Notes: generated from the sequence alone by a model not told the origin. 60,270 bases of DNA, filler included, from 3 parts of 3 records of this genome joined end to end with filler, not necessarily neighbours in it, one strand, 5' to 3'. Positions 30-13,400 are shown, numbered from the whole stretch's first letter. Numbers and translations are program-made.

Positions 30-180
30 GGGTGCTCAGCATTTTTCATGCGGTCGCACGAAATGTCATTCGGTGTCAATTTATGTGGAAAACCCTTCAT
101 ATCCTTGTTTTTAGGGTTTGATTTCACATCGCACGAGGACCTATTGTATCTCAATCGGTGTCAGGGCTTCGCAAATCACT

Positions 181-201
181 TGTCCCCCAAATGTCCCCCA
201 A
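181..201 (+). repeat. Tandem TGTCCCCCAA x2, probable integrase arm-type binding sites
   Basis: Direct repeats at 181-190 and 192-201 between att and the integrase start, as seen next to P4-family integrases. Confidence 0.55.
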
Positions 202-227
202 GGGCAGCACCGCCCAAAGGAGACGCA

Positions 228-1523
228 ATGGCCCAAGCCCTGACAGACGCATTTCTGCGCAAGGTTAAGCCCCCGACCGAGGGGCGAGACGAATATTCGG
301 ACACACTTCGCCAAGGTCTTCGACTGCGGGTTTTGCCCTCTGGGCGGCGGACATGGATGTATGAAAAGCGCATTCGCGGCGGGGCAAAGCGAAAGCACAC
401 GTTGGGAACGTATCCCGGCATGTCGATCAAAGAAGCGCGGGACGTTGCACTTGAGCTTCAACTGGAAGCGGAGCGCGGCATTGACCGGATCCTTGATGCA
501 CAGGAAGCCGAGAAGCAAAGAACGCGCGCACTTGCCGCCCAAAAAACAGTCCGAGAGGTTTTGCAGATCCATGACGAAGTGCATTGCTCAAACCTGAAGA
601 GCGGTAAGGAGCGGATGCGAAGCCTCAATGAGGTGCTTGCGCCACACCTGGATGAACGCCTTGAAGAATTGGACAGGGCAGTCCTGCAGTCCATTGTTGA
701 TCAAAAGGCAAGGTCCGGCGCGCCGGTTCAGGCGAACAGGATTGCCGCATATCTCAGCAAGTTTTCCAAGTTTGCATGGCAGCGCGGATATCAGACAACG
801 CACATCGGCCATGGTTTGGAAAAGCCCTCAAAAGAAGTCCCACGCGACCGAGTGCTGACCTTGGGGGAGATGCAAAAAATTCAACGTGCTTCATTTAAAA
901 TGGGACCTCTCTGGGGACCATTGCTGAGACTGCTCATCGCGACCGCGCAACGGCGGCACCAAATCGGTAATCTCAAATGGCGTGAAATCGACTTCGACGC
1001 ACAACAGATCAACTTCGGAGCAGGCCGCACCAAGAACAACGAGTGGAACCATTTTGTCCACATTCCCAGCTTTTGCATTTTCGAGCTGCGGAGCATGAAG
1101 GACGCCGCCAAAGAACGATGGGGTGCTGAGGGCTTAAGCGACCGCCATATCTTCACGACCACAGGCAACACGCCCCCATCTGGATACTCCAAGTTCAAGC
1201 AAAGGCTGGATAAAACACTTGGCCCAGACATGGAGCATTGGACATTCCATGATCTGAGGACCGGCTTTGCGACCGTCATGTGCGAAGCCGGTGCAGATGA
1301 AATCATCGTTGATCGCATCATGAACCACGCAGCGGTGTCGTCAGCGCCAAGTGCAGTTGCGCGCATCTACAACCGTGCCAAGAACAGCGACTTGCGGCGT
1401 AAAGTCATCGATGATTGGCACGAAGTTCTCAACGAGTTCATCCCTTCGGGGGATATCGTGGCTGTAAAGAGTGCTCTTGGATCTACAAATGCACCAACGA
1501 ATATTTCCCTCGGGAAGCTATGA
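228..1523 (+). CDS. P4-family tyrosine integrase with N-terminal arm-binding (DUF4102-like) domain
   Basis: N-terminus LTDAFLRKVKP..GLRLRV..G.RTW..LGTYP.MS; catalytic R (AQRR), K (RTKN), HDLR, MNH, IYN. RBS GGAG lies before the ATG at 228. Confidence 0.93.
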   Translation: MAQALTDAFLRKVKPPTEGRDEYSDTLRQGLRLRVLPSGRRTWMYEKRIRGGAKRKHTLGTYPGMSIKEARDVALELQLEAERGIDRILDAQEAEKQRTRALAAQKTVREVLQIHDEVHCSNLKSGKERMRSLNEVLAPHLDERLEELDRAVLQSIVDQKARSGAPVQANRIAAYLSKFSKFAWQRGYQTTHIGHGLEKPSKEVPRDRVLTLGEMQKIQRASFKMGPLWGPLLRLLIATAQRRHQIGNLKWREIDFDAQQINFGAGRTKNNEWNHFVHIPSFCIFELRSMKDAAKERWGAEGLSDRHIFTTTGNTPPSGYSKFKQRLDKTLGPDMEHWTFHDLRTGFATVMCEAGADEIIVDRIMNHAAVSSAPSAVARIYNRAKNSDLRRKVIDDWHEVLNEFIPSGDIVAVKSALGSTNAPTNISLGKL

Positions 1524-2230
1524 CTATGATTGTTCAAAACATCCCGATCACCAAAAACGGTCAACTCATCCCCGAAGCTGGGATGCTCGTTCTCGGTTAC
1601 ATGATGTATCCAAATTGTGAGCGAAGCGCGCACCAGTTTACTCGAATTCTTGCGGAAGAAACAGTCGCTAAGGTGCGCGAAGCTGATTATCAAGCTGGAG
1701 GTTTATTTCAAGCAGCCCTTGCCGAACCTTTAGTCCACCGCCTTCTGCTTTCAGGGCAGGTTGCAATCCGTGTCTGTAAAAACCACCAACGCTATGGTGC
1801 CGCTGATTTTCGGAAGGCAGCCCATGTAGTTTCAGAAGTTAACTCGACTCTCAGATTCAGCGATGGAAAACCACTATCAACATCAGAGGGGCCACTTCGG
1901 ACAACATTTCGCGATTATCGAGCATCAATGCACTTTTGGGCTGCTGCATCAACACACCATACCACTCCTGACGGACGCACATTAACGGGAGCTGAAGCAA
2001 TAGCAGAAATGCACATTTCATCAGAGTTTCTCGGGCACTTTCTCGCGACTGCAAAACAATATGAAGATATGCTGGAGAAGGCGAAGCCCGCAGACAGAAT
2101 CTGGTCCGCATCAGAGCCCGCTTTTGAGATTTGGGATTTCGATAAGCTGCCGAAATTGTCAGCACTCCCTGATCAAACGCCCGAAGAACTGCGAGCACTT
2201 TCAAGCTATCGGACGCCGAAGAAGTCCTAG
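1520..2230 (+). CDS. Hypothetical protein coupled to the integrase
   Basis: ATGA overlap with the integrase stop; 236-codon open frame between int and alpA. Confidence 0.7.
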   Translation: MTMIVQNIPITKNGQLIPEAGMLVLGYMMYPNCERSAHQFTRILAEETVAKVREADYQAGGLFQAALAEPLVHRLLLSGQVAIRVCKNHQRYGAADFRKAAHVVSEVNSTLRFSDGKPLSTSEGPLRTTFRDYRASMHFWAAASTHHTTPDGRTLTGAEAIAEMHISSEFLGHFLATAKQYEDMLEKAKPADRIWSASEPAFEIWDFDKLPKLSALPDQTPEELRALSSYRTPKKS

Positions 2231-2315
2231 GTTGGGCAATTTTTTCTGCCCACCTGATACCGTATAGCTATCTCAATTACCCTCATCCCTACGCAATCAA
2301 GCGAAAGGATGAGCA

Positions 2316-2579
2316 ATGCCCCTCACTGCAGAATTCAACCACACACTTGGCGCTGGCGAAGATGCACCAGTTAGCATGCTCGTGGCAAAAGATCCCCTTA
2401 TACGGGATGCCGATGGCGCTTTCATGATGGGTTGCTCTAAAGCGACCTTCTGGCGGCGCGTTGCGGACGGAACAGTCCCCGCAGCGATCAAAATCGGCGG
2501 GCTGAGCCGCTGGCGATTGAGCGACATTGAAGCAGTCATCAGCAACGCAGAAGGCAAACGCGCCGACTCTGCCGCCTAA
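2316..2579 (+). CDS. alpA: AlpA-family HTH regulator/excisionase
   Basis: LIRDADGAFMMGCSKATFWRRVADGTVPAAIKIGGLSRWRLSDI is a classic AlpA pattern. Confidence 0.88.
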   Translation: MPLTAEFNHTLGAGEDAPVSMLVAKDPLIRDADGAFMMGCSKATFWRRVADGTVPAAIKIGGLSRWRLSDIEAVISNAEGKRADSAA

Positions 2580-2700
2580 AAGAAAACCCCCACCCGCAAG
2601 GCGATGCAGGCAGAGGGCAATTTCTTTTTATGAGTCCGCCAAGACCCATTTAGGATATCCCAAAGCCGCCCGCCTTTCAATCCTGAAAGGAACGCGGACC

Positions 2701-3069
2701 ATGACGAACCATACCAAAACCACCATCCCGACCGACCGCCCACCGGCAAACGCATTGCGCGTCGATAAGTGGAGCGACATGCCGACCGGCACAGCCCCGG
2801 CTCGTTACGAGATCACCGGGGAGGACGGCCAGACCACAACCATCACACTGGCCAAGGGCAATCGCATCATCCTCGACGCACTGATCGAGCGCCCCGTGTA
2901 TTGCGCCAGCCCGGTGCGGATCTCTGACCGGGTCTGCATTCTGCGCCGCGAGTATGGCGTACCGATCACAAAGGAGATGTACTCCAACGACAGCGCAACC
3001 GACCGCGCCAAGTTTGGCGTGTACTTCCTCAACGGTGCGGTGCGCCGGATTGACGGGGGTGCAGCTTGA
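2701..3069 (+). CDS. Hypothetical protein, possible winged-helix DNA-binding protein
   Basis: RBS AAGGA upstream; C-terminal RISDRVCILRREYGVPITKE..FGVYFL resembles a wHTH. Confidence 0.6.
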   Translation: MTNHTKTTIPTDRPPANALRVDKWSDMPTGTAPARYEITGEDGQTTTITLAKGNRIILDALIERPVYCASPVRISDRVCILRREYGVPITKEMYSNDSATDRAKFGVYFLNGAVRRIDGGAA

Positions 3070-3071
3070 TT

Positions 3072-3173
3072 ATGGCCCTCAAAATCCAGATTGCCCGCCT
3101 GCAGCGCCTCTACGGCATGTCCGCCTCCCAAGCCCGCCTCGTCGCTGGCCTGCACTACGGGGAGGCCGTGTGA
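3072..3173 (+). CDS. Small hypothetical protein (33 aa, MALKIQIARLQRLYGMSASQARLVAGLHYGEAV)
   Basis: Fills the gap between flanking ORFs; its stop overlaps the next ATG (TGATG). Absent from the ORF track because it is under 60 aa. Confidence 0.55.
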   Translation: MALKIQIARLQRLYGMSASQARLVAGLHYGEAV

Positions 3174-3388
3174 TGACAGACATCGTCAAGAACAGCCGCG
3201 AGATCATCCGCATCACGCGTGGCGAATTCAAAGGTCACGATATGGTCAACGTCCGCGTCTTCTTTGACGCAGGCGATGGCGAGATGAAACCCGGCAAACA
3301 GGGGGTCGCGTTCCGCGCGGCCCTGCTGCCCGATATGTTGAGCGCCCTGCAGGCCTTTGTAACGGAGGCTCAGCATGACCACCAATAA
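3173..3388 (+). CDS. PC4/YdbC-like (p15) ssDNA-binding protein
   Basis: IVKNSREIIRITRGEFKGHDMVNVRVFF..DGEMKPGKQGVAF matches the PC4 family; RBS GGAGG. Confidence 0.85.
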   Translation: MTDIVKNSREIIRITRGEFKGHDMVNVRVFFDAGDGEMKPGKQGVAFRAALLPDMLSALQAFVTEAQHDHQ

Positions 3389-3740
3389 CCTGATGATTGC
3401 CAACGACTTCGACTGCACCATTGGCACGCAGGACGCGTGGTGGGCGTTGATCCCTGACGTGCTGGCCAACCTCACGCCGTACCAGCGCGGATCGGTGGCG
3501 TTTCTGGCCCTCAAATCGCTGGACACCGACATTGCCGCACAGGTGGCAGAAGCGGCTTTGCAACGGGGCGCAGGCCAGCCCATCGCGCCCTTGTTCAATC
3601 ACATGGATGAGGCTGCGTTCTGGGCAGACATGGCAGAGCCGGAGGAACTGGAGGCATATTGCCTCGCCAGCTTCAAAGCGATGCCGAGCTACCGTCAGTC
3701 CGCCTTCCTCGACTTTGTACAGGGGAGGCAAGCAGCTTGA
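3375..3740 (+). CDS. Hypothetical protein
   Basis: RBS GGAGG; overlaps both neighbours in the operon. Confidence 0.7.
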   Translation: MTTNNLMIANDFDCTIGTQDAWWALIPDVLANLTPYQRGSVAFLALKSLDTDIAAQVAEAALQRGAGQPIAPLFNHMDEAAFWADMAEPEELEAYCLASFKAMPSYRQSAFLDFVQGRQAA

Positions 3741-4918
3741 TGCGTGATTTCATCGTTATGGGCGCACAGTTGGACCTGCACCGGGCCGAACATACGAACG
3801 GCGCAGACCGCCTGCCGACGCCCTTTATCTGGCAGGACCCCAATACCCTGCCCCGCCGCCCGTGGATTTACGGGCGGCACCTGCTGCGCAAACAGGTTGC
3901 TGTCACTGTCGCCCCCGGCGGCGTCGGCAAGTCTTCCCTTACCATCGTGGAGGGGTTGGCAATGGTTTCTGAACGCGAACTGCTGGGAGAATGGACCGCG
4001 AACGGCCTGAATGTCTGGCTCTACAACCTGGAAGATCCGCGCGATGAAATGAACCTGCGTATCACAGCGGCCATGCAGCACTACGATGTGCAGCCCTGTG
4101 AAGTGGAAGGTCGGTTGTTCGTAGATACCGGGCGTGAGCGGGAGCTTTGCACGGCAGTCCAAACCCGCGAGGGCGTCGTTATCGTCAAGCCCGAGATTGA
4201 AGAGCTGGCGCGAGAAATCTGCGAGCGCAAGATAGACGTGGTGATTGTTGACCCATTCGTGTCATCGCACCAAGCGGGCGAAAATGACAACGTCGCAATC
4301 GACCTCATCGCCAAGGAATGGGCGCGTCTGGCGGATCGATGCAACTGCGCAATTGAGTTGGTCCACCACACCCGCAAGACCAATGGTATTGAGGCGACCA
4401 CAGAGGACAGCAGGGGCGGGTCGGCCTTGTTGGCGGCTGCGCGGTCGGGCCGGGTGCTCAATCGCATGACGGCGGACGAGCGGGAACAGGCTGGTCTCCT
4501 GCCCGATGACCTAACCACCTACTTCACGGTCACACGCGACAAGGCAAACCTTGCCCCCATCGGCAAACGGACATGGCGGCGCATGGCAGCGGTGGAACTG
4601 GCAAACGGCGAAAGCGTCGGTGTCGCTGAGGCCTGGGAATGGCCCGATACTTTCGATGGCTTCGACAGCAAGGACCTGCTGGCGGTTCAGAATGCCATTG
4701 AAGGCAAACACCCACGCTTCTCGGATCAGGCAGGCGACGATTGGGCCGGGGTTATCGTAGCCGCCGTCCTGGGGCTGGATGCAACCCACGACAAGCGCCG
4801 GATCAAGAAGATGATCGCGGCATGGCTGCAATCAGGCGCATTGGTGAAAGGCACGAAACTTGGCCCGATCCGCAAGCCAGTCCCAACAATTGAGGTGGGC
4901 GAATGGGCAACCGAATGA
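3740..4918 (+). CDS. AAA_25/RepA-type (RecA-like SF4) replicative helicase
   Basis: Walker A APGGVGKS, NLEDP, Walker B VVIVDP, LVHHTRK, RGGSAL..AAR, DKAN; TGATG overlap at the start. Confidence 0.9.
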   Translation: MRDFIVMGAQLDLHRAEHTNGADRLPTPFIWQDPNTLPRRPWIYGRHLLRKQVAVTVAPGGVGKSSLTIVEGLAMVSERELLGEWTANGLNVWLYNLEDPRDEMNLRITAAMQHYDVQPCEVEGRLFVDTGRERELCTAVQTREGVVIVKPEIEELAREICERKIDVVIVDPFVSSHQAGENDNVAIDLIAKEWARLADRCNCAIELVHHTRKTNGIEATTEDSRGGSALLAAARSGRVLNRMTADEREQAGLLPDDLTTYFTVTRDKANLAPIGKRTWRRMAAVELANGESVGVAEAWEWPDTFDGFDSKDLLAVQNAIEGKHPRFSDQAGDDWAGVIVAAVLGLDATHDKRRIKKMIAAWLQSGALVKGTKLGPIRKPVPTIEVGEWATE

Positions 4919-4920
4919 TG

Positions 4921-5072
4921 TGCGTCACCACCCCAAAAAAGCAGGTCACGCAGGGTGACGCAAACACCCCTGTAAACCACTGCGTCACCACCCCTCCCCC
5001 TAAAGGGGGGGGAGGTGGTGGTGACGCGCTCAGTGGGGCTCCGGAGGTGGTGACGCAAAACGACGTGACGCA
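4921..5072. repeat. Cluster of TGCGTCACC/GGTGACGCA direct and inverted repeats, putative replication origin
   Basis: TGCGTCACCACCCC at 4921 and 4981; inverted copies near 4953, 5015-5028, 5047-5057 and 5064, immediately downstream of the helicase. Confidence 0.65.
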
Positions 5073-5105
5073 GCAGCAAACCGGTTCTCAAGAAAGGCAC
5101 TCACA

Positions 5106-5552
5106 GTGAACAAAAAGAACAACCGAAACAGCGGCTCAAATACGGACGACCGGAATCCCGATGGCACGTTTGCCCCCGGCAATCCCGGCAAGCCCAAAGG
5201 ATCACGCCACAAAGCCACGCAGGCTATCGAGGCGATGCTGGAAGGTCAGCAGGAGGCATTAACGCAGGCTGCGATAGCCAAAGCGCTGGAAGGCGACGTC
5301 ACCGCTCTGCGCCTCTGTCTGGATCGGATCGCACCAGCACGCAAAGACGCGCCGGTATCGTTCGACTTGCCTACCATCGAAACGGCAGAGGACGCCGCCA
5401 ACGCTGCGCGCGCCATTCTCCGGGCGATTGCCGACGGCGAGATAACACCACTCGAAGCGGCAACCGTGATGGGTGTGGTCGAACATTTCCGCCGGACCCT
5501 TGAGACCACCGACATGGAAAAACGCATCACAGCATTGGAGGCACAGAAATGA
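5106..5552 (+). CDS. DUF5681-domain / terminase-small-subunit-like protein
   Basis: RNPDGTFAPGNPGKPKGSRHK...LTQAAIAKALEGDVTALRLCLDRIAP; position matches the TerS slot of satellites. Confidence 0.7.
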   Translation: MNKKNNRNSGSNTDDRNPDGTFAPGNPGKPKGSRHKATQAIEAMLEGQQEALTQAAIAKALEGDVTALRLCLDRIAPARKDAPVSFDLPTIETAEDAANAARAILRAIADGEITPLEAATVMGVVEHFRRTLETTDMEKRITALEAQK

Positions 5553-5839
5553 GCATTGAAACACGATTGAGAAAACTGGAAGGCCAGACAATGGGAGAAG
5601 AAGGCCACAAGCTCGACTTCATTTTCATCATAGGCATCAAGTCGGCGGATACGGCGGGGCACAGCGGAGACCCAACCGCCCCGATGGACATCCGGCCATC
5701 GACCGATGTGCCACAGAACTTCGTTGCATATTGTCTGCATCCTCATTGTGAGGCCCGCGAACATTCCAGCTTGCCCGGCGAAACCGTTGATCAGATGGCA
5801 GCAAGGCTGCGTGCCCAACACCTGGAGGCAGGCGCATGA
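5549..5839 (+). CDS. Hypothetical protein
   Basis: ATGA overlap, RBS GGAGG; N-terminal IETRLRKLEG. Confidence 0.7.
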   Translation: MSIETRLRKLEGQTMGEEGHKLDFIFIIGIKSADTAGHSGDPTAPMDIRPSTDVPQNFVAYCLHPHCEAREHSSLPGETVDQMAARLRAQHLEAGA

Positions 5840-6117
5840 CTTTGAAGCATAGGTTATCAGCTCTCGAAAAGACGCAAGCAGATCCACTTACCGTGTTCGC
5901 ATCGGTTCCTTTGGGGTGGAGCCCGGAACATGCAGAGCGGGAGGTAAAAACTTGCGCCTTGGCTCTCGGCATCCAGTCGCCGTTTTCAACATGCATTATC
6001 CATAAAAAACAAGCCGAGCAGGTCAGTATCGATGGCGTCGAAAGCATGAAGGAGCTGCTTGATTACGTGGCTTTGCATGGACGACGGGTCGGGCAGAAAT
6101 GGGAGCGGCACCCATGA
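5836..6117 (+). CDS. Hypothetical protein
   Basis: ATGA overlap, RBS GGAGG; N-terminal LKHRLSALEK. Confidence 0.7.
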   Translation: MTLKHRLSALEKTQADPLTVFASVPLGWSPEHAEREVKTCALALGIQSPFSTCIIHKKQAEQVSIDGVESMKELLDYVALHGRRVGQKWERHP

Positions 6118-6277
6118 CCTCAGCACCTAACATAAAATGCCGTATTGGCTGTGAGTTCCGTGCATCAAATCCGCAAAATAATGATGGAAACGTCGCGCAT
6201 TTTCCCTTTGTTTTCTTGGTTTTAGCCCCAAAAAATGGTAAGATTGAAAGCAACCGATTTAGGGGGAGGGCAGCGGC

Positions 6278-6403
6278 ATGAATACGGGTTTTCAGAACCT
6301 CACAGACATGTTCAACGGCGGTGGTGGAGGCGGTTCAGGCGCAACATTCCAAGGCGCCGGGCTTTGGTCCGCGATCCTCAACATGGCTGGGGGTAAAAAC
6401 TGA
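6278..6403 (+). CDS. Small Gly-rich protein (41 aa, MNTGFQNLTDMFNGGGGGGSGATFQGAGLWSAILNMAGGKN)
   Basis: RBS GGGGAGG; stop overlaps the ATG of the amidase gene (TGATG). Confidence 0.55.
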   Translation: MNTGFQNLTDMFNGGGGGGSGATFQGAGLWSAILNMAGGKN

Positions 6404-8181
6404 TGGGAATCCTTGACGCATCGGATCCGAATTTCCACTACGGAAAGTCCGCGACAGCACACGCCAAGCCCTTTGAGGGCATTGTTTGGCATCACACGCG
6501 CGAAGCGCCACTGATGAACTTGGTCGACTACGGCAAGCGGGTTGATCCTGAACGGGGCGGCGCTTTCGGATACCACTACTACATCGGCCCTGACGGTCAG
6601 GTGGTGCAAGGCGCGCCAACAGACAAGCGCACCAACCACATCAAGCCAGGATCGCCCACAGGGTTCAGCAACAGCAACGCCATGGGGATTTCACTCGTCG
6701 GGGCGGAACATGGTGCAACCCCTGCACAGCTTGAAGCTGCGAAACGCTTGGGCAAGGAAATTGAAGCCAAATACGGCATCCCGGCGACGAACAATCTGGG
6801 CCATGGTGAAATACAAAACGACCGTCAGCACCACGAAGGCGGAGAGCTTGCAGGTTACATGCGCGGCGATGATATCACCAATGACACCATGCGCGCACTT
6901 GGCAAAACGCCGATGCAGCCTGACCCGCCAAAAGCAACCCCGCGCGGTTCAATGATGGCGGAGTCCACTACCGCTACCCGCCACCCCTCGATCAGTTCCC
7001 GTAGCGGCACAGCGTCGCTTCTTGGCAACATCGGCAATGACTCATTGGAGACAGATATGGCAACCGAGTATCAACCCGAAAAAGCCAGCGGCTTGATGGG
7101 AATGATTTTCCCCAACATGACGGCGGATAGGCAGGACCGGATTGCCTTGGCTCTGCACAGCATGACGATCAACCCGGATGAAGGGTTCCAACGCGCCATT
7201 ATGGGCCGCATGGCGGATCGCCGCGATGACCGGAAAGAGTTCAAAAACCAACAGCGCGCGCAACAGAGAGATAGTAAAACGGCGCAAATGTTGAGGAACA
7301 ACGGCGCGCCGGACTATCTCGTCCAAGCTGCCATGAACGGCTACGGGGCCGAGGCGTTTTCACAATACATGCAACTGAAAGGGCGCAGCCCGGACAAGCC
7401 CACACCTTATTCTGACCAAGCCAAGGTCATGTCGGACCTCCGGAACGGGTTGATCACCCAAGAGCAGGCGAATGCGGCTTTGACTGGTGGTAGCACCGAA
7501 GCGGATCGGGAGATTGCCCGACTGGAGAGCGTAGGCATCCCGCGCAACATCGCAATCAAGATCAAAGAGGGCGTGTACAAAACGACGCAAGATCCGCTGA
7601 CGCGAGAAGTTACCGTCATTGATATTTCAACTGGCCAGCCCGTCTATCAGGCGACGGGAACCCCCACACCCGCACCATCCGAGATCCTGACCCCTGCCCC
7701 AACACCAACCGGTGCAGACGCCAGTGACAGCTTCGGCCTGGAGGGGATGATCAAACGTGCAATCAACAGCGGATCAGACTTCGTAGGCGCTGGCACCCCT
7801 TTCGAGGGTGTCCGTGATACGCAATCAGATTTCGCGGTACTGCGTGAAGGTCTCGTTAACGATATCTCGCAAGGATATGGACGCCAGCCGCCCAGCTGGC
7901 TCATGAAAAACATCCAAGACCTGACGCCATCGGCAGGCGGGATTCAGGGGGCGGAGGATGCGCAATCCAAGCTGGGCGCGCTGCAACGCAGTTTCGCCCA
8001 AGAACTTCAAAGCATTGAGCAGCAAATGCAGGGCCAAATTTCACCTACTCAACGACAGGTTCTGACGGAGCGGGCAGCATCGCTGAATGCAGCTGTCGGA
8101 AAGGTCGATAACGCGCTGAGGAGATTTGGCAACGGCGGAGTCGGCACAACGAAAAGCGGCATCAAGTGGAGTGTTGAATAA
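6403..8181 (+). CDS. Amidase_2 (N-acetylmuramoyl-L-Ala amidase) fused to a podovirus ejection-protein-like helical region
   Basis: IVWHHT...GYHYYIGPDG...NSNAMGISLVG...T.AQ..A...GHGE in the first ~150 aa; the rest is A/Q/G-rich and helical, ending TTKSGIKWSVE. Confidence 0.8.
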   Translation: MGILDASDPNFHYGKSATAHAKPFEGIVWHHTREAPLMNLVDYGKRVDPERGGAFGYHYYIGPDGQVVQGAPTDKRTNHIKPGSPTGFSNSNAMGISLVGAEHGATPAQLEAAKRLGKEIEAKYGIPATNNLGHGEIQNDRQHHEGGELAGYMRGDDITNDTMRALGKTPMQPDPPKATPRGSMMAESTTATRHPSISSRSGTASLLGNIGNDSLETDMATEYQPEKASGLMGMIFPNMTADRQDRIALALHSMTINPDEGFQRAIMGRMADRRDDRKEFKNQQRAQQRDSKTAQMLRNNGAPDYLVQAAMNGYGAEAFSQYMQLKGRSPDKPTPYSDQAKVMSDLRNGLITQEQANAALTGGSTEADREIARLESVGIPRNIAIKIKEGVYKTTQDPLTREVTVIDISTGQPVYQATGTPTPAPSEILTPAPTPTGADASDSFGLEGMIKRAINSGSDFVGAGTPFEGVRDTQSDFAVLREGLVNDISQGYGRQPPSWLMKNIQDLTPSAGGIQGAEDAQSKLGALQRSFAQELQSIEQQMQGQISPTQRQVLTERAASLNAAVGKVDNALRRFGNGGVGTTKSGIKWSVE

Positions 8182-10721
8182 TGGCGACCCTGACAATTGA
8201 AGGCAAAAAGGTAACGGTAGACGACAGCTTTCTAAGCCTGTCACCGGAACAACAGGAGGCAACGGTCGAGGAAATCGCGGGATCAATGGGCCTCGCCGAT
8301 CAGTCCGGTTTCATGGGCCATCTGAATCAAGGCATTGCAAATGCAGCAGGCGGTATCGTTGATCTGATAAACCCCTTTGATCAACCGCACGCCCTGAACC
8401 CGTTTAGCCAGGGAACAGGGTCCGCAGTCACCGGCTTGGAGAGAGGCATGGATGCTATCGGTGTGAACCGCGCCACATCCGAACCGGATACCTTCGCGGA
8501 AAATCTGGCAAGGGGTGCGGGCGAAGCGGCTGGCGCAGCACCATTCGGGGGAGTGGCAGCGAAAGCGCTGTCCGGTGCGGGTGGCATCATCGGCGGGATT
8601 GCAGACGACGCATCAACAGCCATGAACAGCGCGCGCGGCTTTGTGTCGGAAATGTTCGCAGGCGCAGGCGCGCAGGGTGGTCAGTCCCTTGCCGAAGATG
8701 CTGGCGCACCGGAATGGATGCAGACGACCGCAGGCATTCTAGGCGGCGCGGGCGTCGGGGCAATTCCCGGCGCAGTACGTAAAACTCCCAGCGCAATCGG
8801 AGCGCGCAAACTGACTGGCGCTGTGAAAACAGCCATGCTGCCCTACACCAAAGCAGGCGGCAAAGAAGTTGCCCGCCAACGTGTGCAGGAGCTGGCAGGT
8901 GGCGCGGATCGGGCCGAACAATTGGCCCGAGAAATCGGCCCTTCCGAAATCGGTCTTAGCCCAGCCCAGCAAACAGGCGATCCAAACCTTTTGGGACTTG
9001 AACAAGAAGCCATGCGACGGAACCCGAAGCTGCGGGCCGCAATGGATGCACGCGCAGAAGCTGGCCAGCAGACTGCTGCCGACCGCCTGCGCGGTATGGG
9101 CGGTGATCCAGCTGAAGCGCAGTCATTCTTTGAACAACGCCGCGCTGACTTCCGTGTCGCAATCAATGGCCTTGTGGATCGCGCTACGGCTGGAGCTTTG
9201 CGCCCGACCGCCAAAAACAGCGAGATGATCAACAGCCAAGAGGTTGCCGACAAGATCAGGGCCGCACAGAGCGCCGCAAAGGCGCAAGAGGGGGCTTTGT
9301 GGGCACGTGTGCCCAAAGGAACGCAGGTAGGCACTACACGGGCGCGACAGGCGGCGCAGGAACTGATTGCAGACACGCCCCGCGCACAGCGCGAAGATAT
9401 CCCCCGCGTCGTGCAAGAACTCCTTGGCCCGGACAGCAACAGCGCCTTCGGTGAATTTGAGACTGTTTCGGAAATGCACGGCCTTTACAGCAAACTGCGC
9501 GAGACCGCCCGCGCCGCCCGCAGCGGCACCAATCAGCAGCGCAACTTAGCCCGCATTTCTGACAACGTCGCAGATGCGATCCTTGAAGACTTGGGCGCAG
9601 GTGCAGGGCAATCGAATGTCGGCCGCACGATTGACGAAGCCCGCGCGTTTTCTGCGGAAATGCACCAAACGTTCGACCAGGGCGTTATTGGCAAGCTGCT
9701 GCGGCAAAGCACCGATGGGGACAGGGCCATTGATCCGGCGCTAACGTTGGACCGCACCGTGGGGCGAGGTGGGTCGCAAGGCGCAGTGGGCGCTGACAGC
9801 ATCCGTGCGGCCACAGGATCGAGCGCAGACCTGCAGATGGAAGACTTTTTGCAGGGGCGTTTCAATCGCGCCGCCTTTGGTCCTGATGGGCAGTTCAATG
9901 TCCGTGGCGGCCTTACCTTCATGCGCGATAACGCAGACATGATCGGTCGCTTCCCTTACCTGCAGGAGACCTTTAACGAAGCGCTGCGCACCCAGACGCG
10001 TGCATTCAACACCACGGCCCGGGCTGAAAGAGCCTTGACCAACATGGACAGCCCGTCAAAATCACCTACGGCGGCATTTACACAAGCCCCTGCGGAGACG
10101 GCAATTGATGCGGTATTCAAGGCGAAAAGGCCCTCGGTCGAGGCGCGTCAACTTGCGGCCACTGCCCGCAAAGACACGTCTGGGAAGGCTATGGACGGCC
10201 TTAAAGGTTCTTTTTCTGATTACGTGATCCGCAGCAGCACCGACGCCAGCGGATTGAGCGGGGATGCTATGCTCCGATTTTTGGCCAAGCCCGAGAACGC
10301 CGCAACCCTGCGCACCGTGTTATCTGATGGTGATATCGGCAGAATGCGGATGATCGGCGCGGAATTGAAAAAGCTTCGGACTGGGCGCAAGGCAGCGCCG
10401 GACATTGGCGGGTTGTCACCACGATCCCCAAATCGCGTGATCGAATACGCTGCACGCATTATCGCGGCAAATCAAGGGGCCAAGGCCGGAAGCGGCGGGG
10501 CATCCCTTCAAACCGCTCAAATGGCGTCGGGCCGCATGAAAGCGCTTCTGGGCAACCTGCAGAATGACAAAGCCGAGCAGATGCTGATTGATGCGGTATC
10601 AGATCCCGAACTATTCCGGTTGCTCTTGATCGACCCCGGCAAGGTCACTTTGAAACCCCAGCAGATCAACCGACTTGCACCATATTTTGCAGGCGCGGGT
10701 GCGGCAATGGGAGCCGAATAA
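8181..10721 (+). CDS. Large Ala/Gly-rich protein resembling podovirus internal virion/DNA ejection proteins
   Basis: 846 aa with no Cys; N-terminal MATLTIEGKKVTVDDSFLSLSPEQQEATVEEI, Gly/Ala-rich amphipathic segments, LSPAQQTGDP motif; coupled to the upstream gene. Confidence 0.65.
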   Translation: MATLTIEGKKVTVDDSFLSLSPEQQEATVEEIAGSMGLADQSGFMGHLNQGIANAAGGIVDLINPFDQPHALNPFSQGTGSAVTGLERGMDAIGVNRATSEPDTFAENLARGAGEAAGAAPFGGVAAKALSGAGGIIGGIADDASTAMNSARGFVSEMFAGAGAQGGQSLAEDAGAPEWMQTTAGILGGAGVGAIPGAVRKTPSAIGARKLTGAVKTAMLPYTKAGGKEVARQRVQELAGGADRAEQLAREIGPSEIGLSPAQQTGDPNLLGLEQEAMRRNPKLRAAMDARAEAGQQTAADRLRGMGGDPAEAQSFFEQRRADFRVAINGLVDRATAGALRPTAKNSEMINSQEVADKIRAAQSAAKAQEGALWARVPKGTQVGTTRARQAAQELIADTPRAQREDIPRVVQELLGPDSNSAFGEFETVSEMHGLYSKLRETARAARSGTNQQRNLARISDNVADAILEDLGAGAGQSNVGRTIDEARAFSAEMHQTFDQGVIGKLLRQSTDGDRAIDPALTLDRTVGRGGSQGAVGADSIRAATGSSADLQMEDFLQGRFNRAAFGPDGQFNVRGGLTFMRDNADMIGRFPYLQETFNEALRTQTRAFNTTARAERALTNMDSPSKSPTAAFTQAPAETAIDAVFKAKRPSVEARQLAATARKDTSGKAMDGLKGSFSDYVIRSSTDASGLSGDAMLRFLAKPENAATLRTVLSDGDIGRMRMIGAELKKLRTGRKAAPDIGGLSPRSPNRVIEYAARIIAANQGAKAGSGGASLQTAQMASGRMKALLGNLQNDKAEQMLIDAVSDPELFRLLLIDPGKVTLKPQQINRLAPYFAGAGAAMGAE

Positions 10722-11062
10722 TGCAGTGGTCCTCTGACACATTCACGCTTGAGGATGCCCGTGGCGTGCTTGCCCTCTTTGCGCCTGACAAGGTGACAGA
10801 GGACCGATGCAAAAGGCTCTGTAATTACCTTGAGGAAATACCGCCGCCTCATACCGTCGATGCCTACGTGAACTATTTCGAGCAGATCACACCAGCGGCG
10901 ATACGTGCGCAGGAAACGGGCCACGTGGATGCGGAGCTTTGGCTCTATGCTCTATCGGTGCGCGCCTTGTCATACGAGGTCGAGCAGGAATTTCACGGGC
11001 CGATGAAGCAACTAATTTGCGGCGACCCGCCAGATCAGCGCCCTGCGCAATCCACAGCATAG
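10721..11062 (+). CDS. Hypothetical protein
   Basis: TAATG overlap with the upstream gene. Confidence 0.6.
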   Translation: MQWSSDTFTLEDARGVLALFAPDKVTEDRCKRLCNYLEEIPPPHTVDAYVNYFEQITPAAIRAQETGHVDAELWLYALSVRALSYEVEQEFHGPMKQLICGDPPDQRPAQSTA

Positions 11063-11119
11063 GACCGGGGGCCGATTTTGTGACACACGGCAGTGACAAA
11101 TAAAATAGGGGCCGACAAT

Positions 11120-11384
11120 CTCGCCAAGCGCAAAGAGGCGTATATCGTGCTGCACCCTGAAACGGCGAAGACCGGGCCGCGCCCTGATGGTTGTGGCCAA
11201 GTTGGCCATAATACATTCGCAGACGACCAAGCATCTAAAACAGGGCAGGGAAGGTAAGGGTTTAGGCGTTGCAAGAGACAACGCCCAAATTGCTACCGCT
11301 GCCGACATTGGCTTGCGCCGTGACGAGATACACGACGCCCGAAAGCTGCGCGATGCGGAGCGTGACATCCAAACGCAGCTTTGA
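11120..11384 (+). pseudogene. Fragments of phage-type genes
   Basis: LAKRKEAYIVLHPETAKTG and TAADIGLRRDEIHDARKLRDAER are short phage-protein-like motifs in different frames with no intact ORF. Confidence 0.4.
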
Positions 11385-11473
11385 AACAAGGGGAGGACAT
11401 TTATGCCTGCCGTTGGTGGGCCGGGGTGTGGGGCTTTCCGCACCTTCCAACGAGGGCAGCACAGTGACCAAAA

Positions 11474-11872
11474 ATGATCGATAACGGAGACACGCCACCA
11501 CGTCGCAAGCCCCAGATCATCGCAGCGCCCAAGCCTCGGCGGGTCTACTGGTGTGAGTTTCCACGGGATGCCTTGCTGCCTGAATTCTGGAAAACCCGCC
11601 CTGTGGTGATCCTATCGCCCCGCGCAAATCTTCACGGGGTGGTGACTGTTGTGCCTCTGTCGACCAAAGCCCAACCTGATAACAAGCTGGCCCATGCCTT
11701 CGCATCTGTGCTGCCTGATGGGGGTACATCGTGGGCAATTTGCAGCCATGTGACGACGCTGTCCGTTGCCCGCCTATCGCTTGTGAATGGAAAGGCGCCG
11801 ACCATTCCAGAGGATGATTTCACAGAAATTCTTAGGATTGTGCGTTCACAAATCCCGACGCCCCGCGCGTAG
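11474..11872 (+). CDS. PemK/MazF-family endoribonuclease toxin (no protein antitoxin adjacent)
   Basis: PKPRRVYWCEF...PEFWKTRPVVILS...VTVVPLST...SWAICSHVTTLSVARL. Confidence 0.88.
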   Translation: MIDNGDTPPRRKPQIIAAPKPRRVYWCEFPRDALLPEFWKTRPVVILSPRANLHGVVTVVPLSTKAQPDNKLAHAFASVLPDGGTSWAICSHVTTLSVARLSLVNGKAPTIPEDDFTEILRIVRSQIPTPRA

Positions 11873-11877
11873 AAATC

Positions 11878-11998
11878 TTGACTTTCGGGTCATGGGTGCC
11901 TACCTGTGACTGCATATGCGGCCCCTAACGGGTGTCCGTCGCCCCGCAAGGGGAGATAGCTGCAAGGGTGTCGGGAAACCGCGCCCTTGTTTCTTTTT
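11878..11998 (+). ncRNA. Candidate small structured RNA with its own promoter and terminator
   Basis: TTGACT-N17-TACCTG, hairpins CCC-TAAC-GGG and CCCC-GCAA-GGGG, then stem CAAGGGTG..GAAA..CGCCCTTG with a T-rich tail. Confidence 0.5.
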
Positions 11999-12074
11999 CA
12001 GGGCTATCTCAAAGCGATCAGCCACCATCCCTCATTCCCAGACAGACAACCGAAAAGATAAAGATCACCCATCT

Positions 12075-12145
12075 GGGGTTTCGAAAGGGGGCAGAGCGCC
12101 CCTTCGCCGGAGAGACATAACAGCCCGCCAGGGAGGTTATGGCTA
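12075..12145 (+). promoter_or_regulatory. Putative oriT for the MOB_V relaxase
   Basis: Inverted repeats AAGGGGGC..GCCCCTT (~12085-12104) and CATAAC..CCC-GCCA-GGG..GTTATG (12116-12141) just upstream of the relaxase. Confidence 0.5.
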
Positions 12146-12230
12146 GTAGGTTCCCGCATGCGCGATCCGATACGGCAGGCCAATCAGTTTTGGTAAACCG
12201 ATTTTCACAGTCTTCCCGTATCTTGTCTGC

Positions 12231-13400
12231 ATGGAAGAAAAGAGCTTCGCCATTTCAGTCAGGATCGAGCACCGTTCGATGGGCCGCGCACAGTCTGCGC
12301 GCTACCATGATCTGCGTCTTGGCCACATTCCGGGATATGTAGATCAGGAACGGATTGCCGAGAATTCCACAATCTTGGAACCGGCAATGCCCTCAGCACT
12401 GCGGCGGATCTGTCTGACCCATCGCGCCAATCGCCCAACACAGCGTGCCATGAAAAAGGATGCCGCTGTCGCAAGCTGCTTCATCATCACCTTCGGGAAG
12501 GCTGCGCAGCCAATCTTCGAAGCCCTGCCCAAAGCCCAGCAGGATGCCGCATATGAAGCTGTGGCCAAGGCCGTGGCATCCCTTCTGGGGTCTGAGGTGA
12601 CAGGCCTTGTCGCGCACAGAGATGAGACCGCGCCACATGCTCACGGGCAGATGCCTGCCGTTCGCCTGGATGGTCGCCCTCTGTCAAAGGTGTTGACGCC
12701 ACGCATGGCAAAGCAAGTGCAGGACGTTGCAGCCGAGGCCATCGCACAATTCGCGCCGCAGATTGTCCGGGGTAAGCCCAAGGCTCAGCGAATTGCAGAT
12801 GGTGAGCCACTCTCTAAAACTGTCCATCGCTCTGTGCGACAACTGCACAACGACCTACCCACCGAGATCAGCACAAAGGCGGCTGAAGTCGAAAAGCTGC
12901 AAGGCCGGATCGAGAAGATGCGCGCCAAGGAAAAGCTGACCGAGGCAAATGCGAGAACACTGGTCACCTATGAAAGGCGATTGGCTGAGAAAGCAGCTCA
13001 GTTGAGAGAAAAACAGCGGGCTTTTGCCGCAAGCACGCGCGCCATTCAAACCCAACAAAAAGCCCGTGAAAGCGCCATTGCTGAACGTGAAGCGGCGGTA
13101 GTCGTGCGAGAACAGGAAGTCACAGCTCAGGTCGAGGGCATCAAAGCTGCTGTGGAGGCCGTAAAAGCGGGGACGGTCACGCGGGGGGAAGATGGCAGAC
13201 CTGTGGTGACAGATGCCACACATGCTGCAGTCCTGCGGCCCGTGTGGCGGTCTCTTGGACCTCTCGTCATGACCCTTGCAGATATGCGTGCCGAATTGGC
13301 CACCAGCCTACAGCGCTTCCGTGACCTGTTCCGCCGCAACGAACTGCAGCCTGAAATCATTGAAGACGGCAGGGACCTGTTAGACGGGATGGATCCATAA
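12231..13400 (+). CDS. MOB_V (Mob_Pre) relaxase / plasmid recombination protein
   Basis: HDLR motif, VDQERIAENSTI, HRDETAPHAH (HxDExxPHxH), C-terminal coiled coil. Confidence 0.88.
   Translation: MEEKSFAISVRIEHRSMGRAQSARYHDLRLGHIPGYVDQERIAENSTILEPAMPSALRRICLTHRANRPTQRAMKKDAAVASCFIITFGKAAQPIFEALPKAQQDAAYEAVAKAVASLLGSEVTGLVAHRDETAPHAHGQMPAVRLDGRPLSKVLTPRMAKQVQDVAAEAIAQFAPQIVRGKPKAQRIADGEPLSKTVHRSVRQLHNDLPTEISTKAAEVEKLQGRIEKMRAKEKLTEANARTLVTYERRLAEKAAQLREKQRAFAASTRAIQTQQKARESAIAEREAAVVVREQEVTAQVEGIKAAVEAVKAGTVTRGEDGRPVVTDATHAAVLRPVWRSLGPLVMTLADMRAELATSLQRFRDLFRRNELQPEIIEDGRDLLDGMDP

Follow-up and report, generated by a model that had tools for sequence, protein, structure and literature searches.

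MazF and PemK are the textbook toxins of type II, whose control is ascribed to protein antitoxins. In the type III systems ToxIN, CptIN and TenpIN, as defined by Blower et al. (2012, PMC3401426), an array of tandem short repeats and a terminator lie upstream of the gene for a ToxN-like toxin. A single, non-repetitive small RNA (sRNA), AvcI, binds and inhibits the deaminase toxin AvcD; AvcI exceeds the toxin transcript in abundance and disappears when transcription is shut off (PMC10511110). Here we consider positions 11474-11998 of a stretch of 60,270 nucleotides (nt), referred to as the window, which consists of three parts of three records of one genome joined with filler. A gene for a MazF/PemK-family endoribonuclease is followed there by the gene for a small, folded RNA. 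We favour, at about even odds, the reading that the two form a mobile, type III-like module in which the sRNA is an RNA antitoxin acting on the toxin protein.

With ToxIN, CptIN and TenpIN (PMC3401426) the locus has in common an endoribonuclease toxin with an adjacent non-coding RNA on a mobile element, a layout of terminator and promoter that can give an excess of RNA, and a proposed direct neutralisation of protein by RNA. Unlike them, the RNA is present as a single copy, lies downstream and has its own promoter, and the toxin is a canonical MazF/PemK protein rather than ToxN, CptN or TenpN. Tandem Repeats Finder returned no repeat in 10500-12500 at a minimum score of 30, and no terminator separates RNA and toxin gene in the manner of type III loci, as the RNA and its terminator lie downstream. 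The behaviour of AvcID (PMC10511110) is the same as that proposed for the present pair; AvcD, however, is a deoxycytidylate deaminase and not an RNase, AvcI is the longer RNA, with a minimal functional length of about 171 nt, and AvcI shows no sequence or structural relation to our sRNA. MazEF, PemIK and Kis-Kid share the toxin family and fold, and the arginine of the K-x-R-P motif and the serine or threonine after a conserved proline are kept. In contrast to those systems there is no MazE/PemI-type gene here and a conserved sRNA gene follows that of the toxin. The pemK RNA motif of Firmicutes is a structured RNA found with PemK-family genes, located in the 5′ untranslated region (UTR) of those genes and expected in Rfam; no Rfam model matched the window sRNA. 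Full-text literature searching, with subscription journals and supplements outside its reach, gave reviews, ToxIN and AvcID only and no description of this RNA or of the pairing.

The toxin open reading frame (ORF) matches the Pfam family PF02452, PemK_toxin, over residues 22-125 (49.9 bits, the cut-off being 23.1; E 4.1e-13), and the PHROG family 'MazF-like growth inhibitor' (E 1.6e-9). A ten-member toxin profile matches solved structures, namely chains of Mycobacterium tuberculosis MazF7 and MazF9 and of Escherichia coli MazF. The AlphaFold2 model, built on 41 sequences, has a predicted local distance difference test (pLDDT) score of 90, and Foldseek gives MazF-mt1, E. coli MazF and Staphylococcus aureus MazF as the structures closest to it; all the matches listed are MazF-family proteins or close homologues (YdcE, MoxT), with target-normalised template modelling (TM) scores of 0.65-0.78. 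Sixteen columns are invariant in the toxin family, including the K-x-R-P motif. Arg42 shows no variation in the 41 sequences, Pro61 is nearly invariant and is followed by serine or threonine, and these positions align with the RP and VPxS motifs of MazF7. The conserved arginine of K-x-R-P and the serine or threonine after the proline are presumably the catalytic residues. The N-terminal arm is also conserved and is rich in proline and arginine (PPRV.P....AP). Because Pfam, the Protein Data Bank (PDB) sequence search and Foldseek all give MazF, we assign the product as a canonical member of the MazF/PemK family, with predicted RNase activity and toxicity, and not as a ToxN-like type III toxin. 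The original prediction had drawn a parallel with ToxN, which shares the Kid/MazF fold, and needs correction to that extent. The toxin is rare, being present in three of 401 sampled genomes of the class.

The −35 hexamer of the sRNA promoter begins five nt past the toxin stop codon. The coordinates originally given for the ORF, this promoter, both tetraloop hairpins and the terminator (Table 1) were all reproduced from the window sequence. On the + strand 11873-12010 folds with a z score of −3.55, and none of 200 shuffled sequences does as well; the − strand gives −2.04. A simple consensus scan of the window for promoters and terminators listed neither the sRNA promoter nor its terminator, since the −10 hexamer does not end in T and the loop of the terminator is longer than the 8 nt that the scan allows. 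No known RNA family was found: the best Rfam 15 scores in the window are 17.4 and 13.7 bits, against gathering scores of 43 and 37; twelve homologous loci gave only tRNA and mmgR matches, none at the position of the sRNA; and the loci L031 and L038 gave nothing above 16 bits, even at E values up to 10. A single sequence alone would be unconvincing, and it is the comparative evidence that places the element beyond chance. An inverted repeat, GAGATAGC (11954-11962) and GCTATCTC (12002-12010), flanks the terminator and lengthens its stem in the fold; it occurs in neither L001 nor L129, two of the closest relatives, and is thus specific to the window. A metatranscriptome run contained a 0.11 fraction of the sampled words, and its sole contig spans 12135-12300, outside toxin and RNA.

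Table 1. Positions of the toxin-sRNA pair and of other features in the window
Feature	Position	Strand	Remarks
Toxin ORF, MazF/PemK-family endoribonuclease gene	11474-11872	+	132 amino acids; stop TAG 11870-11872
sRNA promoter	11878-11906	+	−35 TTGACT 11878-11883; 17-nt spacer; −10 TACCTG 11901-11906
sRNA, about 85 nt	11914-11998	+	5′ end inferred at an A conserved in 97% of sequences; covariance model R1
Hairpin P1	11918-11939	+	CGG/CCG base, variable inner helix, conserved bulged U in GUGU
Tetraloop core of P1, CCC-TAAC-GGG	11923-11932	+	read from the sequence
Hairpin P2, CGCCCC-GCAA-GGGGAG	11940-11955	+	GNRA loop; CCCC-GCAA-GGGG 11942-11953
Single-stranded linker AUAGCUG	11956-11962	+	nearly invariant UA (column conservation U 80%, A 98%)
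Intrinsic terminator	11963-11998	+	G+C-rich hairpin 11963-11989, U-tail (T-run) 11990-11998; folds
24-codon ORF	11403-11477	+	GGAGG 11392-11396, six nt before ATG; TGA overlaps toxin ATG (ATGA)
Tyrosine integrase	48-1523		Pfam/PHROG scans
Primase/helicase-like ORF	3659-4918		Pfam/PHROG scans
Amidase/endolysin-like ORF	6403-8181		Pfam/PHROG scans
846-amino-acid ORF	8181-10721		no family match
Mob_Pre relaxase	12231-13400		Pfam/PHROG scans

How constant is the association of this RNA with the toxin? A tblastn search of plasmids with the toxin gave 13 records. Nine of the ten plasmid loci fetched, with toxins 43-70% identical, share the same architecture past the stop codon: TTGAC(A/T)-N17-TAnnnn, a bulged hairpin, a short hairpin usually with a GNRA loop, a linker and a terminator. 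Scanning one genome per species yielded 199 relatives, the best 80 of which were kept, and the covariance model R1 comprises 60 sequences, 84 positions and 21 pairs. The window sRNA scores 68.7 bits against it (E 5e-24). In 92 of 94 sources R1 has exactly one strong match adjoining the toxin gene, at 27.6-87 bits with the next-best match no higher than 17.3 bits, and it matches four out of four further toxin loci from viral contigs. These sources and the viral contig loci, with L131 omitted as it was taken to be the same contig as L065, make up 97 distinct loci. The RNA adjoins the toxin in 95 of them; the toxins are 41-87% identical, and the loci come mostly from Alphaproteobacteria and mobile elements. 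Two toxin-bearing whole genomes have their sole strong R1 match next to the toxin gene, and two whole genomes without an R1-type toxin have no strong match.

The two loci without an R1 RNA, L010 (3037-3240, on the Xanthomonas citri plasmid pCuR, the tenth of the fetched plasmid loci) and L013 (1896-2035, genome G178), have the most divergent toxins, at about 39% identity. Each carries a TTGAC-N17-TAnnnT promoter over the stop codon and then a different, terminator-ended RNA, whose fold is not significant singly (z about −1.5). MazF-like genes followed by sRNAs may thus form a wider superfamily. At a further locus, L060 (2495-3160), the toxin frame has an internal stop and the RNA lies 188 nt away, compared with about 45 nt usually; this may be a decaying copy.

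Conservation of the structure beside homologous toxins, which the original prediction called for, was found together with covariation. In 96 distinct sequences aligned to the R1 model, 90.7% of the cells are paired, as against 78.5% in shuffled alignments and 42-62% with slid partners; 18 of the 21 base pairs change on both sides in a compensatory manner, and none of 500 shuffles reaches any of the observed measures. An independent RNAalifold prediction on a plain MAFFT alignment has compensatory changes at 13 of 18 pairs. All nine pairs of the terminator helix change on both sides across the family, as do three of the five pairs of P2, which is 94.4% paired and whose loops are mostly of the GNRA type. 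The closing pair of P1 is G.U in 60 sequences, A.C in 30, G-C in four and A-U in two; G.U and A.C pairs are isosteric. The bulged U of P1 is present in 93 of the 96 sequences. Conservation is greatest at the base and bulge of P1, where P1 joins P2, in the stem of P2 and at the UA of the linker, and column conservation over the family reveals no long conserved single-stranded stretch that could serve as a seed.

The sRNA has a promoter of its own. In five loci (L020, L022, L028, L040 and L049) it is inverted and convergent with the toxin gene, its terminator abutting the toxin stop codon, so that it is a transcription unit in its own right and cannot be merely a 3′ UTR; its tight linkage to the toxin is independent of orientation. 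The family promoter consensus is TTGAAT/TTGACA-N17-CTATAT, and 7-8 nt further on comes an A that 97% of the sequences share and that is 11914 in the window. A promoter score of at least 8 out of 12 is reached by 54 of 97 distinct upstream regions and by 4.2% of shuffled sequences. The −10 hexamer of the window is below that threshold and shares the TAC(C/T)T variant of its clade. Both hexamers are kept while the spacer between them diverges, whether the window is compared with L001 or with L129. Of the 85 same-orientation loci measured, 30 have a −35 hexamer that overlaps the toxin stop codon or directly adjoins it. Stop codon and start site are separated by a median of 45 nt, and in the window by 42 nt. 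Given this position, toxin transcripts should read through the sRNA, with the internal promoter adding more RNA. These observations, with the linkage in 95 of 97 loci, support the separately transcribed, self-contained downstream RNA that was originally proposed.

The closest relative is L129, an IMG/VR contig with a toxin 87% identical to that of the window at the amino-acid level (L001 70%, L014 64%). Nucleotide identity between window and L129 is 39% upstream of the toxin, 79% in the toxin coding sequence (52% at third codon positions), 54% in the promoter region, 95% (81 of 85 positions) in the RNA and 38% downstream of the terminator. The conserved unit therefore begins at the toxin ATG and ends with the terminator of the RNA, and constraint is tighter on the RNA than on the protein. 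The two toxins have a ratio of nonsynonymous to synonymous substitution rates (dN/dS) of 0.069, with a dS of 1.17. Six Bartonella loci that have no upstream ORF give a median toxin dN/dS of 0.068 over 15 pairs and RNA identities of 83-97%. Toxins without an upstream ORF retain all the invariant residues and are, as judged by these ratios, under purifying selection.

Searches were also started from the RNA. A 25-nt pattern from the RNA core, scanned through a metagenome collection, found 31 loci, of which 30 are informative, and an intact toxin gene lies just 5′ of the RNA in 25 of these 30. One locus has a truncated toxin (L106), the flank of another is too short to judge (L102), and five have the RNA without toxin (L109, L096, L104, L113 and L117). 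At the place of the toxin there is an IS3-type transposase ORF in L109 and nothing recognisable in L113 and L117. In L096 (3649-4823) a 62-bit copy of the sRNA lies 45 nt past a Zeta_toxin-family ORF, itself preceded by a 102-amino-acid ORF, and in L104 (148-650) a 68.5-bit copy directly follows a 103-amino-acid ORF homologous to the latter. A shorter pattern found four loci in viral contigs: L127 with a 75-bit RNA beside a 46-residue C-terminal remnant of the toxin, L125 with a 43.6-bit RNA and no toxin, L128 with a 33-bit RNA and a flank too short to judge, and L126 without an R1 match. In the loci examined the toxin was never met without a downstream RNA, L010 and L013 carrying different RNAs. 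The RNA thus sometimes outlives an intact toxin and the toxin always has an RNA, the pattern expected if the RNA protects against the toxin.

Upstream of the toxin gene the window has two overlapping ORFs in different frames, 11093-11257 and 11187-11384, neither with a Pfam match, and no helix-turn-helix (HTH) gene. They resemble the debris of a frameshifted small gene and are preceded by a sigma-70-like site, TTGTGA-17-TAAAAT, at 11078-11106. There is no Shine-Dalgarno sequence at the toxin start itself; the 24-codon ORF that overlaps it may provide translational coupling, although its status is uncertain. The idea that this ORF is a remnant of an HTH gene is unsupported, its nucleotide identity to L129 being 41% and that of the flanks 39%.

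The original prediction described the toxin as an orphan with no antitoxin ORF upstream. That is true of the window. In its closest relatives (L129, L001, L014, L015 and L017), however, an Xre-type HTH gene of 78-91 codons overlaps the toxin start. An adjacent upstream HTH gene occurs in 41 of the 97 loci, and these genes come from four unrelated families (28 HTH_36/DnaD_N, six HTH_3, four HTH_17 and three HTH_31), which are lacking from the other 56 loci, the window included. In 25 loci a different kind of ORF lies upstream, examples being IF-2, 3-hydroxyacyl-CoA dehydrogenase, a short-chain dehydrogenase and an MmeI-type enzyme, and 31 have no ORF of at least 50 amino acids ending between −60 and +15 nt from the toxin start. 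No MazE/PemI-type antitoxin gene is found in the window, and the HTH genes of the relatives belong to the four other families. Since the RNA is there in 95 of 97 loci while the upstream protein varies, comparison of the loci suggests that the sRNA, and not a protein, is the constant partner of the toxin. Where an HTH protein is encoded we take it to be a transcriptional regulator or else a second antitoxin that can be dispensed with. By eye only, an ORF upstream of the toxin in L031 (2210-2380) resembles a fragment of a Phd/YefM-type antitoxin, and one in L057 (2116-2337) a ParE/RelE-type toxin; if they are as they look, they would put the module in islands rich in toxin-antitoxin genes.

If the sRNA is an antitoxin, how might it act? 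Toxin transcripts would run on through the sRNA and end at its terminator, and additional RNA made from the internal promoter of the sRNA, a promoter that in many loci overlaps the stop codon of the toxin, would bring the RNA into excess over the toxin. The folded RNA would then bind the toxin directly, occupying or occluding the groove in which the MazF dimer binds RNA; P1 with its bulge, P2 with its GNRA loop and the short linker with its invariant UA would be available for contact. When transcription stops, whether by loss of the element or by phage shut-off, an unstable RNA would decay and the RNase would be freed, and the biological role of such neutralisation might include phage defence.

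Several points weigh against this antitoxin model, and some of them favour its main rival, a type II system to which the sRNA is an accessory. There the real antitoxin would be the HTH protein, or else an unrecognised peptide or N-terminal extension, and the sRNA a regulator inherited along with it, a favoured substrate of the RNase or its cofactor; the sRNA might tune the toxin level or act on host or plasmid transcripts. The HTH gene is translationally coupled to the toxin gene in those 41 loci, the three closest relatives of the window (L129, L001 and L014) among them, and so placed it looks exactly like a type II antitoxin, to which the sRNA could be accessory. Its loss in the window may be recent, and the toxin there may be untranscribed. 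The Bartonella toxins (L036, L038, L041, L044, L071 and L090), whose genes lack a separate ORF upstream, are extended at the N terminus by a conserved segment of about 55 amino acids, encoded by approximately 170 nt upstream of the toxin core, that is acidic, rich in Pro, Glu, Asp and His, and subject to in-frame indels; it could be a built-in inhibitor. The linker, which contains A and U, together with the U-tailed terminator after it resembles the Hfq-binding module of trans-acting sRNAs. The evidence of the R1 family calls for caution also: the covariation was counted on an alignment fitted to the structure of the model, which favours that structure, the 97 loci are the best-scoring part of the 199 relatives and include near-duplicates, and the RNA may also travel with another type of toxin, as with the Zeta_toxin of L096, and so not be strictly tied to MazF. 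On the other side, the HTH proteins come from four unrelated families and are missing from 56 of 97 loci, the RNA is present in 95, the toxins without HTH partners are under strong purifying selection, and the RNA family has no conserved single-stranded seed. We consider a type II system with an accessory sRNA unlikely, yet deserving of serious attention.

A type I-like arrangement, with the sRNA pairing to the toxin mRNA or to the read-through transcript and so blocking translation or triggering decay, is improbable. Trans-encoded RNA antitoxins with limited complementarity do exist, and the sRNA sequence is also part of the 3′ end of the toxin read-through transcript in the 85 same-orientation loci measured. 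Pairing of sRNA and mRNA, assessed by an ungapped helix score, is nevertheless no better for cognate than for non-cognate combinations (20.2 and 20.5, respectively; median cognate ranks 36.5 and 32 of 60), neither the translation-initiation region nor the mRNA as a whole shows complementarity specific to cognate pairs, the best helices do not recur at a consistent position, and the toxin is not a small hydrophobic peptide. A 12-nt direct repeat between the RNA core (11933-11944) and the coding sequence (11760-11771) is not conserved elsewhere and scores no better in the sense than in the antisense direction, and we attribute it to chance.

We give scarcely any credence to the idea that there is no RNA gene here but a DNA element (an oriT or mob leader, a single-strand origin or a recombination site) or a plain toxin terminator: a Mob_Pre relaxase gene does start 233 nt downstream and an 8-nt inverted repeat does flank the terminator in the window, but the element accompanies the toxin and not relaxases, following the toxin in loci without a relaxase (most RNA-bearing loci have no adjoining one), a conserved promoter of its own precedes it and a U-tail ends it, only the transcribed strand has frequent G.U pairs, folding is better for the + than for the − strand, and a plain terminator would not hold P1, P2 and the linker at 95% identity when the coding sequence is at 79%.

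The clade occurs in Bartonella, sphingomonads, roseobacters and other Alphaproteobacteria, carried by plasmids and integrative elements; relatives are found on small RepL/MobQ plasmids or in the neighbourhood of ssb and antirestriction genes. In the window the integrase, primase and relaxase genes that surround the toxin-RNA pair (48-13400) place it in an apparent integrative mobilisable element. Upstream of the relaxase gene, 12074-12162 (89 nt) is 78.9% identical to an unannotated stretch in 30 plasmid records, of about 281 kb, from Pseudosulfitobacter pseudonitzschiae, and may be an oriT or some other site conserved on plasmids.

On comparative grounds the sRNA is a previously undescribed RNA family of 96 distinct sequences, in near-obligate linkage to one clade of MazF proteins. 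That this whole clade of canonical MazF/PemK toxins is neutralised by a single-copy, separately promoted sRNA, with neither a MazE-type protein nor a repeat array, is a more tentative proposition, which we place slightly short of an even chance. If true, it would constitute a third architecture of RNA-antitoxin system, an RNA antitoxin having taken over the archetypal toxin fold of type II; the variable HTH proteins would then be regulators added on, and L010 and L013 more distant branches with other RNAs at that position. It would call for a broader definition of type III systems, no longer bound to repeat arrays and toxins like ToxN, explain many of the 'orphan' PemK annotations on alphaproteobacterial plasmids, and offer a compact RNase-RNA pair for the study of RNA-protein recognition. 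The pair is a testable case of an RNA possibly replacing or complementing a protein antitoxin and, even if the sRNA is not an antitoxin, it represents a new and well-supported class of sRNA on mobile elements.
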